From a virus, in IMG/VR virus record IMGVR_UViG_3300023184_000039, positions 32,001 through 96,000 of that record: 64,000 bases of DNA; one strand, 5' to 3'. Of this stretch, positions 24,817 through 59,185 are shown in pieces (positions within the stretch are counted from its first letter, which is position 1; the number at the start of each line of letters is the position of its first letter). Made by a program: the position numbers and the translations under genes. Under the pieces are notes generated by a model, which saw only the letters and a program-made list of their open reading frames with translations, made no database searches and was not told the origin of the DNA.

Positions 24817-25344
24817 CTAATTGTCCTTCCTTAGAGAATCAAGTATCGTCCAATCTACTTTCTCCAGCGCCGACAAATTCACTTTTGGCCAATCAATTAG
24901 ACTTGTACCCAAATATGTTTTTGCCATTTCTAGAAGTATCCATGCATCGCATTGGTCATCTGCCCCAGGGTTGCGAAATGTGATTCCGGTTTTTGCCGAT
25001 ATTGAAGATACAACCTCATTCTTTGAGGCGTTCCCTCTGCCTGTGGCAAATTTTGCTCGGCAGGTTGGGGGGATTTCAATGAACGGAATATTCATTTTGT
25101 AGAGAACCGTTCTCACAACTCCACCCAATTCACCAATTGAAAATGCTTGACCGCTGCGAGATGCAAAGGAGTAGCCCTCAATTATGACGGCATCAATTTT
25201 TTCCTCTGTTGCCATACTGGACACAACTGAAGATATTAGGTCAAGCCTCTTTACACCTTTTTCCGTAGTTGCAATTATCCCCATTTTGTTATCGCAGCAA
25301 AACCCAGTTGAGACAAGCGACAGGTCAAGGGCCAATAGATTCAC
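24817..25344 (-). CDS. ruvC: RuvC-like Holliday junction resolvase
   Basis: LALDLSLVSTG, IIEGYS, GELGG, ATGRGNASKNEV, DDQCDA acidic residues; GTG start 6 nt after TAGACT. Confidence 0.85.
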   Translation of the reverse strand: MNLLALDLSLVSTGFCCDNKMGIIATTEKGVKRLDLISSVVSSMATEEKIDAVIIEGYSFASRSGQAFSIGELGGVVRTVLYKMNIPFIEIPPTCRAKFATGRGNASKNEVVSSISAKTGITFRNPGADDQCDAWILLEMAKTYLGTSLIDWPKVNLSALEKVDWTILDSLRKDN

Positions 25345-25357
25345 AATCAGAGTCTAA

Positions 25358-25422
25358 TGGAATAGACGCAAAAGCCGAGTGAGTCTCCCCACCCGACTTT
25401 TGCGCCTATAACGGTCCTAAGG
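25358..25422 (-). ncRNA. candidate small RNA: 17 nt antisense to 23S rRNA H69 plus GNRA hairpin
   Basis: Minus strand reads TACACT-N6-CCTTAGGACCGTTATAG, then a 22-bp stem with four G-U pairs and a GAGA loop (25362-25409); intergenic. Confidence 0.5.
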
Positions 25423-25484
25423 ATTATAAGTGTACCTTTAGTGAAAAACATAATAAAGCAAGTATTCAAAATACTAGAGATATA

Positions 25485-25790
25485 TCACTGTTCCCAACCA
25501 TGCTTCGCTAATCCCAAATCAAAAGCAAGTTGTGGGTAGTTTCCGATGCGTGTATGGCATTTTCTGCACACGGCAATAACATTCTCTTCGTCCAGAATTG
25601 AGCCACCCTGTGAGCGTCGCTTGAGTTCGTGTACATCGCGTGATGGTTGTTGCACATAGGTGACAAGACCATCGTGTTTGGCAAACACAGGACAGGCAAC
25701 GCAGTAAGGAAACCTTTCCAGAATGTCCTTTACGAAAGGTCTACGCAATTCGTACTCTGCTTCTTTTTTTGCGCTTCTTTTTCTAATCAC
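25485..25790 (-). CDS. small HNH endonuclease
   Basis: CVAC...DVHELKRRSQGGS...NVIAVCRKCH. Confidence 0.8.
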   Translation of the reverse strand: MIRKRSAKKEAEYELRRPFVKDILERFPYCVACPVFAKHDGLVTYVQQPSRDVHELKRRSQGGSILDEENVIAVCRKCHTRIGNYPQLAFDLGLAKHGWEQ

Positions 25791-59009: not shown

Positions 59010-59084
59010 GGCTGACGAGGTAGGGGTCGAACCTACGACAAGCGGATTAACAGTCCGCTGCTCTGCCAACTGAGCTACTCGTCA
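59009..59084 (-). tRNA. tRNA-Asn(GTT), CCA encoded
   Basis: TGACGAG TA GCTC AGTTGGCA GAGC A GCGGA CT GTT AA TCCGC TTGTC GTAGG TTCGACC CCTAC CTCGTCA G CCA. Confidence 0.95.
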
Positions 59085-59113: not shown

Positions 59114-59185
59114 TATCCCATGGAGGAATCGAACTTCCATCGATTGCTTAGAAGGCAATTGCTTTATCCATTAAGCTAATGGGAT
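59114..59185 (-). tRNA. tRNA-Arg(TCT), no encoded CCA
   Basis: ATCCCAT TA GCTT AATGGATA AAGC A ATTGC CT TCT AA GCAAT CGAT GGAAG TTCGATT CCTCC ATGGGAT A; one T-stem mismatch. Confidence 0.88.

Follow-up and report, generated by a model that had tools for sequence, protein, structure and literature searches.

A phage small RNA gene is very probably present on the minus strand of the 64,000-nt stretch of viral DNA analysed here, which is termed the window. The gene is situated between two open reading frames of the same orientation. Its predicted transcript consists of a short head that is invariant in sequence among related phages and a long stem-loop that is not, and the head is complementary to a part of 23S rRNA that includes one strand of helix 69 (H69). 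That the RNA pairs with the 23S rRNA of the host is, on the basis of duplex modelling, moderately probable. Taken as a whole, the explanation that best accounts for the sequences is a trans-acting phage small RNA whose head would pair with H69 of 23S rRNA, and this is given slightly better than an even chance of being correct.

Gene neighbourhood, promoter and hairpin

The source genome is viral and complete, with 140,645 bp and direct terminal repeats; the window represents its bases 32001-96000. Three WhiB-family genes are found in this genome, all outside the window (G000:C1:2501-2692, 115540-115731 and 121767-121952). WhiB is a hallmark of actinobacteria and of actinobacterial phages, and the control for the WhiB search gave matches in Corynebacterium alone. 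With three WhiB genes in the phage genome, the host is assigned to the actinobacteria. The carriers of the small RNA are, as judged from sequence, lake actinobacterial phages, in which the family is abundant.

Genes near the element are all on the minus strand and lie within a PD-(D/E)XK/ParB replication-recombination block. The upstream neighbour encodes a small HNH endonuclease and the downstream neighbour a RuvC-like resolvase (Table 1). In nearly all copies from relatives the order is PD-(D/E)XK, a 167-aa protein, HNH, RNA, RuvC, a 111-aa protein and ParB. The HNH gene adjoins RuvC in relatives that have the RNA gene and in others that do not, and it is regarded here as context. Most relatives have a gap of 0-15 nt between HNH and RuvC and no element there. 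In addition, two relatives that are at least 90% complete and three partial genomes, all without the element at the HNH-RuvC locus, do not have it elsewhere either. As most relatives join HNH to RuvC directly, and related genomes are without the element anywhere, the RNA gene is regarded as an accessory insert.

Table 1. Positions in the window of the predicted small RNA gene and of its two neighbours
Feature	Position	Strand	Basis or remark
Small HNH endonuclease gene, 101 aa, upstream neighbour	25485..25790	-	Pfam PF01844
−10-like hexamer TACACT (family consensus T-G-TAnnnT)	25429..25434	-	Sequence
Predicted small RNA, ~62-66 nt	25358..25423	-	5′ end inferred from −10 spacing, 3′ end from hairpin end
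Family-invariant 17-nt block CTTAGGACCGTTATAGG	25405..25421	-	Identical in 54/54 aligned relatives
Hairpin, 22 bp, GAGA loop 25384-25387	25362..25409	-	Folding; structural body, probable RNA 3′ end
RuvC leaderless-type promoter TAGACT	25351-25356	-	6 nt, then GTG start at 25344-25342
RuvC-like resolvase gene, downstream neighbour	24817..25344	-	Pfam PF02075

Two adjacent tRNA genes are found elsewhere in the window, on the minus strand (59012-59084 and 59114-59185; Rfam RF00005, 67-68 bits). Nothing else in the window reaches the gathering score in Rfam 15, and around the element there is no meaningful Rfam match at E values up to 10.

The initial annotation placed a −10-like hexamer exactly 6 nt before the complementary 17-mer, and the sequence bears this out; the 6 nt are TATAAT. 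Of 54 non-redundant relatives, 47 have the T, 52 the A and 49 the final T of the hexamer. T-G precedes the hexamer, and the distance from hexamer to block in relatives is 7-8 nt. The exceptions represent a class with an extra 5′ hairpin that has its own TATACT farther upstream. This pattern points to a promoter belonging to the RNA itself, at a fixed distance from the RNA start. For actinobacterial promoters that consist of a −10 element only, the lack of a sigma-70-type −35/−10 pair (see below) is as expected. A motif similar to the promoters of single-subunit RNA polymerases (TTAGG-N5-TATAGG, SP6/K11-like) was also considered and was dropped, as it is unique in the genome and located downstream of the −10 hexamer.

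The spacing had also been likened to that of leaderless starts in the same genome, and the likeness is found at the neighbouring gene: RuvC displays TAGACT, 6 nt and GTG, and the layout of TATAGT or TAGACT, 6-7 nt and a start codon recurs 5′ of RuvC in relatives. The RuvC gene is apparently leaderless, with no Shine-Dalgarno sequence between TAGACT and GTG (window 25342-25356, minus strand).

A scan of the element with the sigma-70 consensus detected neither a −35/−10 pair nor a U-tract terminator. The window copy has no U tract 3′ of the hairpin (tail CTATTCCAT); among relatives, a U tract, defined as at least 5 T in the 9 nt after the stem, is present in 20 of 54. Of the original proposal of an sRNA with a 5′ seed, the gene, its minus-strand orientation and the hairpin, which is found to covary, have strong comparative support, while a U-tract terminator and a −35 element are missing from the window copy.

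The hairpin itself is as first described, with 22 bp, a GAGA loop and four G-U pairs, and its minus-strand fold (−41.4 kcal/mol, z −5.8) is far stronger than that of the plus strand (−26.0 kcal/mol, z −3.4). The family stem, derived from 54 non-redundant copies, comprises 16 consensus pairs, and 99.4% of its cells are paired. Compensatory changes, involving both sides, are found in 14 of the 16 pairs. None of 500 shuffles reached the observed covariation, and pairing falls to 35-56% when the partner is slid by 1-3 columns. G-U pairs constitute 190 of the 864 stem cells (22%). Since these are mismatches on the plus strand, the RNA is read from the minus strand; the covariance model gives 93.9 bits for the minus and 25.7 bits for the plus strand. 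Loop insertions of variable length and the pattern of paired changes, both seen in the alignment, argue against a coding reading. The element also differs from a plain intrinsic terminator in that a U run is absent and the strongest constraint is on the 17 nt before the stem.

A location between two co-oriented genes is what one would find for a cis element of the HNH-RuvC transcript, i.e. a terminator or stabiliser for HNH, or a leader or processing site for RuvC, with the conserved block as a signal for protein binding or for processing. Just 16 nt separate the HNH stop from the block in some relatives, and the 20 copies with a U tract after the stem fit the same explanation. The TAnnnT motif, however, keeps its fixed spacing even where it is buried in the end of the HNH gene, and the hairpin is followed by a leaderless-type promoter that belongs to RuvC. 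Most relatives, with their short HNH-RuvC gap, need no such element, and the same seed with a hairpin is found in a different gene context. A cis function is therefore quite improbable.

Conservation of the 17-nt block

The 17-mer initially reported on the plus strand at 25406-25422 is confirmed, and this is its single occurrence both in the window and in the source genome. It is also, as claimed, a segment of 23S rRNA, since the Rfam bacterial LSU consensus contains the identical 17 bases, nearly all in upper case. When placed on 23S rRNA through the Rfam alignment of a real 23S gene, the 17-mer takes in the H69 loop in its 3′ half, then the 3′ strand of H69 and the linker after it. On the minus strand, the complement of 23S rRNA 1914-1930 consists of the first 16 nt of block CTTAGGACCGTTATAGG and the preceding C at 25422. 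Of the 54 relatives, 34 have C immediately 5′ of the block, 14 have U, 6 have A and none has G; either C or U can pair with G1930. In the window copy the last 4-5 nt of the 17-mer are part of the stem base, which leaves a free 5′ tail of ~13 nt.

The initial annotation put a chance match at a few percent and considered that the promoter and hairpin lowered this further. The estimate holds in so far as a lone 17-mer match is weak evidence, since ~0.09 matches of at least 17 nt to the rRNA operon are expected per genome by arithmetic. What rules out chance is instead the conservation across phages, where the block forms the invariant head of an RNA gene. Background exact matches between the source genome and a 7-kb rRNA operon extend up to 14-15 nt, and there is no exact rRNA match longer than 15 nt in the source genome besides the 17-mer. 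The flanks of the 17-mer differ from 23S rRNA on both sides and display no LSU match in Rfam.

The exact block CTTAGGACCGTTATAGG, used as a query whose final G keeps true 23S genes out, is found in at least 119 contigs in a scan of viral contigs. Among the matches listed, 64 of 64 distinct flanks display TAnnnT, 7-8 nt, the block and a long hairpin. A control scan of both strands of 185,579 prokaryote species (one genome each, 596 Gb) produced nine matches: three variant 23S genes and six isolated matches, all six of them without a hairpin. At least 119 viral matches, as compared with six hairpin-less ones in prokaryotes, indicate that the element is a phage feature and no random word. Among the isolated phages in GenBank, neither the locus nor the element had a BLAST match.

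As the first viral scan required the block, three samples blind to the seed were drawn, which share some contigs. With the RuvC protein as anchor, the element is present in 6 of 10 loci and the block is exact in all six, one of which has an unrelated stem sequence. A scan with the exact hairpin core yielded 40 matches, all of them with the element (one cut by a contig end), and the block is exact in 40/40 with upstream sequence. The downstream 111-aa protein as anchor yielded 80 loci, five with the element and with the exact block in 5/5. No copies with a decayed seed were detected in the three samples.

The search of viral contigs that the initial annotation suggested thus yielded homologues with the same promoter-seed-hairpin plan. 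A plain terminator, according to that annotation, would keep the hairpin and lose the seed; the reverse is observed, in that the seed is invariant and the hairpin sequence drifts. Mean column identity over 54 copies of the element is 63%, as opposed to the invariant 17-column block, and the 17 invariant columns are outside the consensus stem, as in a conserved seed. Neighbouring proteins in the carrier contigs are only 36-60% identical, and near-identical strains are therefore excluded as the source of this conservation.

The same block is present in a second, unrelated context in 10 contigs, where the hairpin is a different one and a small extra 5′ hairpin is found (L055:5300-5500, L035, L043, L053, L057, L087, L122, L125, L127 and L129). 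The neighbours there are SNase-like and 2OG-Fe(II) oxygenase genes, with HNH absent. The small hairpin before the block is of the GNRA type, and C-rich repeats (CCCCCAAAC) follow the block. WhiB is present in two of five second-context records tested. Spread across phyla gives no argument for a universal target, because the second-context class also bears WhiB and is thus actinobacterial. A resemblance of the element to a CRISPR repeat or a tracrRNA was unsupported.

The 17-mer is also the core of the I-CeuI homing site in 23S rDNA. Together with the adjacent HNH gene and the location in a replication and recombination module, this raises the question of a role at the DNA level, whereby the 17-mer would be a site for the HNH or a homing enzyme, or a replication or packaging signal, and the hairpin would be incidental. 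However, only 17 of the ~26 bp of the I-CeuI site are present at the element, the flanks differ on both sides, and a LAGLIDADG gene or intron is absent. The HNH gene occurs with and without the block, and the second context has no HNH neighbour. The block is not palindromic, and both the fixed −10 hexamer and the covarying stem, which is rich in G-U pairs and strand-specific, are marks of a transcribed RNA that the homing site does not share. A DNA signal is for these reasons very unlikely.

It is extremely improbable that the match is without function, either as a chance match or as a neutral leftover of a captured rDNA fragment. The expectation of ~0.09 matches per genome and the 14-15 nt background are in its favour, and the L254 family described below looks like a rearranged antisense rDNA copy. 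Yet the block is invariant across phages with proteins as divergent as given above, its flanks have no rRNA similarity, and the numbers of viral and prokaryote matches are far apart.

Predicted pairing with 23S rRNA

The block and 23S rRNA 1914-1930 form a predicted duplex of about −30 to −32.5 kcal/mol; the own fold of H69 has −7.2 kcal/mol. In a duplex scan of the whole rRNA operon (mean −9.2 kcal/mol, sd 3.4), every other site is far weaker. Within the genome of the phage itself, its own antisense strand excluded, the best site has −19 kcal/mol, which is the background tail. Across the 185,579 species, the 23S gene alone is a recurrent perfect complement, and the target segment is universally conserved in the Rfam bacterial LSU consensus. 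H69 of 23S rRNA as the only strong predicted partner of the small RNA is thus supported by computation. Pairing of the seed with H69, as proposed at the outset, is likewise predicted by the model, where the duplex at 23S 1914-1930 is unique in its predicted strength. Mean unpaired probability of the seed is 0.62 in the partition function, a moderate value that depends on uncertain 3′ boundaries.

It is proposed that TACACT is an actinobacterial-type promoter with a −10 element only, from which transcription would begin no more than 1-2 bases from the invariant 17-nt single-stranded head, and that the long covarying hairpin would stabilise and end the RNA. The head would then pair with host 23S rRNA 1914-1930, a segment made up of the H69 loop in its 3′ half, the 3′ strand of H69 and the linker leading to helix 70. 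The most likely time for pairing would be while this region is open, in 50S subunits that are free or still being assembled, and H69 (bridge B2a) would thereby be prevented from forming or working. As a guess, the consequence might be a block of subunit joining or of the maturation of new 50S subunits, or cover against host toxins that cut rRNA. In the 70S ribosome, H69 lies buried between the two subunits in a folded and modified state, and access would therefore be limited to free or nascent 50S subunits. There are counterpoints. The phage itself needs ribosomes, and what it would gain from the pairing is not obvious. Furthermore, the element is accessory, the window copy does not have the U tract and −35 element, and seed accessibility is only moderate.

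Two other phage RNA families of different sequence have their best operon site in the same 23S region. One is a small unit with a promoter at one end and a terminator at the other (L254:5000-5140, minus strand), which displays a 20-nt antisense word to 23S 1927-1946 together with a collinear block directed to the 5′ side of helix 69. The second is a separate family of eight contigs (L264-L271) with a 13-nt core and flanks that are antisense to 23S rRNA. The predicted energies are −45 and −38 kcal/mol, respectively (z about −5 to −6). In both families the terminators are on the antisense strand and the conserved parts are antisense to 23S ~1898-1946. The phages are apparently non-actinobacterial, and the L254 promoter is of the TTGACA/TATAAT type. 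It is mainly because these two families converge on the same 23S region that rRNA is preferred over another target.

A real small RNA whose head acts on a different partner, for example an mRNA of the host or of the phage, a tRNA or an RNA-binding protein, and whose 23S complementarity is incidental, is considered unlikely, although two points speak for it. Bacterial sRNAs normally act on mRNAs via 7-12 nt, and there is a selection bias in that the element was singled out through its rRNA match; over the whole sequence scan, 0.1-0.6 cases of a chance 16-17-nt rRNA match inside some conserved RNA are expected. On the other hand, all 16-17 nt are invariant, which suggests that the full length is in use, and the only recurrent perfect complement among the species scanned is the 23S gene. 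There is also no standout site in the phage genome, and the two further families point at the same rRNA region. With pairing to 23S rRNA as the preferred reading, and at least three families that converge on this region, it is an evenly balanced question whether phage small RNAs represent natural antisense agents against the ribosome core, which reprogram or protect ribosomes.

Known systems and other RNAs near the locus

The predicted RNA is similar to RybB/OmrA-type sRNAs and to phage sRNAs (PMC12197685) in that it has its own promoter, a 5′ seed, a stable 3′ hairpin and a length of ~60-70 nt. It differs from RybB/OmrA-type sRNAs in its predicted partner, which is rRNA of mature sequence and not mRNA, in an invariant complementarity of 16-17 nt as opposed to 7-12 nt, and in the absence of a U tract from the window copy. 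Hfq is generally missing from actinobacteria. A 2025 review of phage small RNAs nowhere mentions rRNA (PMC12197685).

A natural antisense RNA to rRNA has been described in Helicobacter pylori. It is cis-encoded, and the duplex that it forms with the 23S-5S rRNA precursor is cleaved by RNase III (PMC6582327). That RNA is bacterial, acts in cis and is directed to a precursor leader, whereas the present one is of phage origin, is predicted to act in trans and would pair with a universally conserved helix of mature rRNA. A synthetic 13-mer PNA against helix 69 invades the hairpin and blocks translation and growth in E. coli (Kulik et al. 2017, as cited in PMC10777018). The helix is the same in the two cases, but the man-made PNA has its counterpart here in a natural RNA with a tail of 13-17 nt, for which pairing is predicted.

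Proteins are known to attack the same part of the ribosome. The actinobacterial toxins MazF-mt3 and MazF-mt6 cut 23S helix/loop 70 and the 16S anti-SD, and MazF-mt6 cuts 50S subunits but not 70S ribosomes (PMC5408214). The Ribocin nuclease cuts helix 69 (PMC13189344). It follows from these nucleases that the helix 69-70 region can be reached in free 50S subunits and is attacked there in nature (PMC5408214, PMC13189344). They differ from the phage element in that they are RNA-cutting proteins and the element is an RNA. The MazF site UUCCU is ~9 nt beyond the seed footprint, and simple shielding of that site is thus not obvious.

Literature searches, among them one for the exact motif, gave no match, and no Rfam family matches. 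As far as found, a natural trans-acting RNA against a mature functional rRNA helix has not been described for bacteria or viruses. If the pairing is real, it would represent a new viral route to the translation machinery, through direct RNA-RNA contact at intersubunit bridge B2a, a spot that is exploited by antibiotics, toxins and synthetic antisense oligomers. The seed would then be an antisense sequence tried out by natural evolution and directed to a ribosomal site that is universally conserved. As the family is abundant in lake actinobacterial phages, it may also have a bearing on the ecology of freshwater bacteria that are among the most numerous.

Between the small RNA and RuvC, about half of the relatives have a further structured RNA, ~150 nt in length (e.g. 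L003:2835-2990; also L012, L014, L017, L024, L028, L037, L059, L070 and L083). It has its own TG-TACTCT promoter, a long-range pairing UCUAGC...GCUAGA and a U-tract terminator, and it looks able to switch between terminator and anti-terminator pairings. There is no Rfam match to it at E values up to 1. The RNA gene is thus accompanied, in these relatives, by an RNA whose predicted best operon site is the 16S 3′ tail. The complementarity is in a conserved 5′ segment (GAAAGGCRGGUGGUC and variants), with this site the best one for 4/4 variants and predicted energies of −22 to −31 kcal/mol. In the source genome, a pattern search for this anti-16S partner gave a single match, in a coding region (window 50220). 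As that match is coding, and there is no other rRNA match above 15 nt, the partner is taken to be absent from the source genome.

Other relatives display a different small hairpin RNA at the same locus, ~60-110 nt upstream of RuvC, with the core CCGTTACCTTAGGAGTC (L205, L211, L220, L222, L224, L225, L231, L240, L247 and L252). Its single-stranded CCGTTACCTTRGGAGTC contains the two short blocks of the window seed in swapped order, and it has a 10-nt exact complement to 23S 1923-1932. This RNA was rejected as support for H69, since the operon scan gives equal or better sites elsewhere, including helix 81.

One further viral contig (L255:14380-14460) carries a piece of 23S rDNA that ends inside helix 69. 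This piece may be a captured fragment or an assembly chimera.
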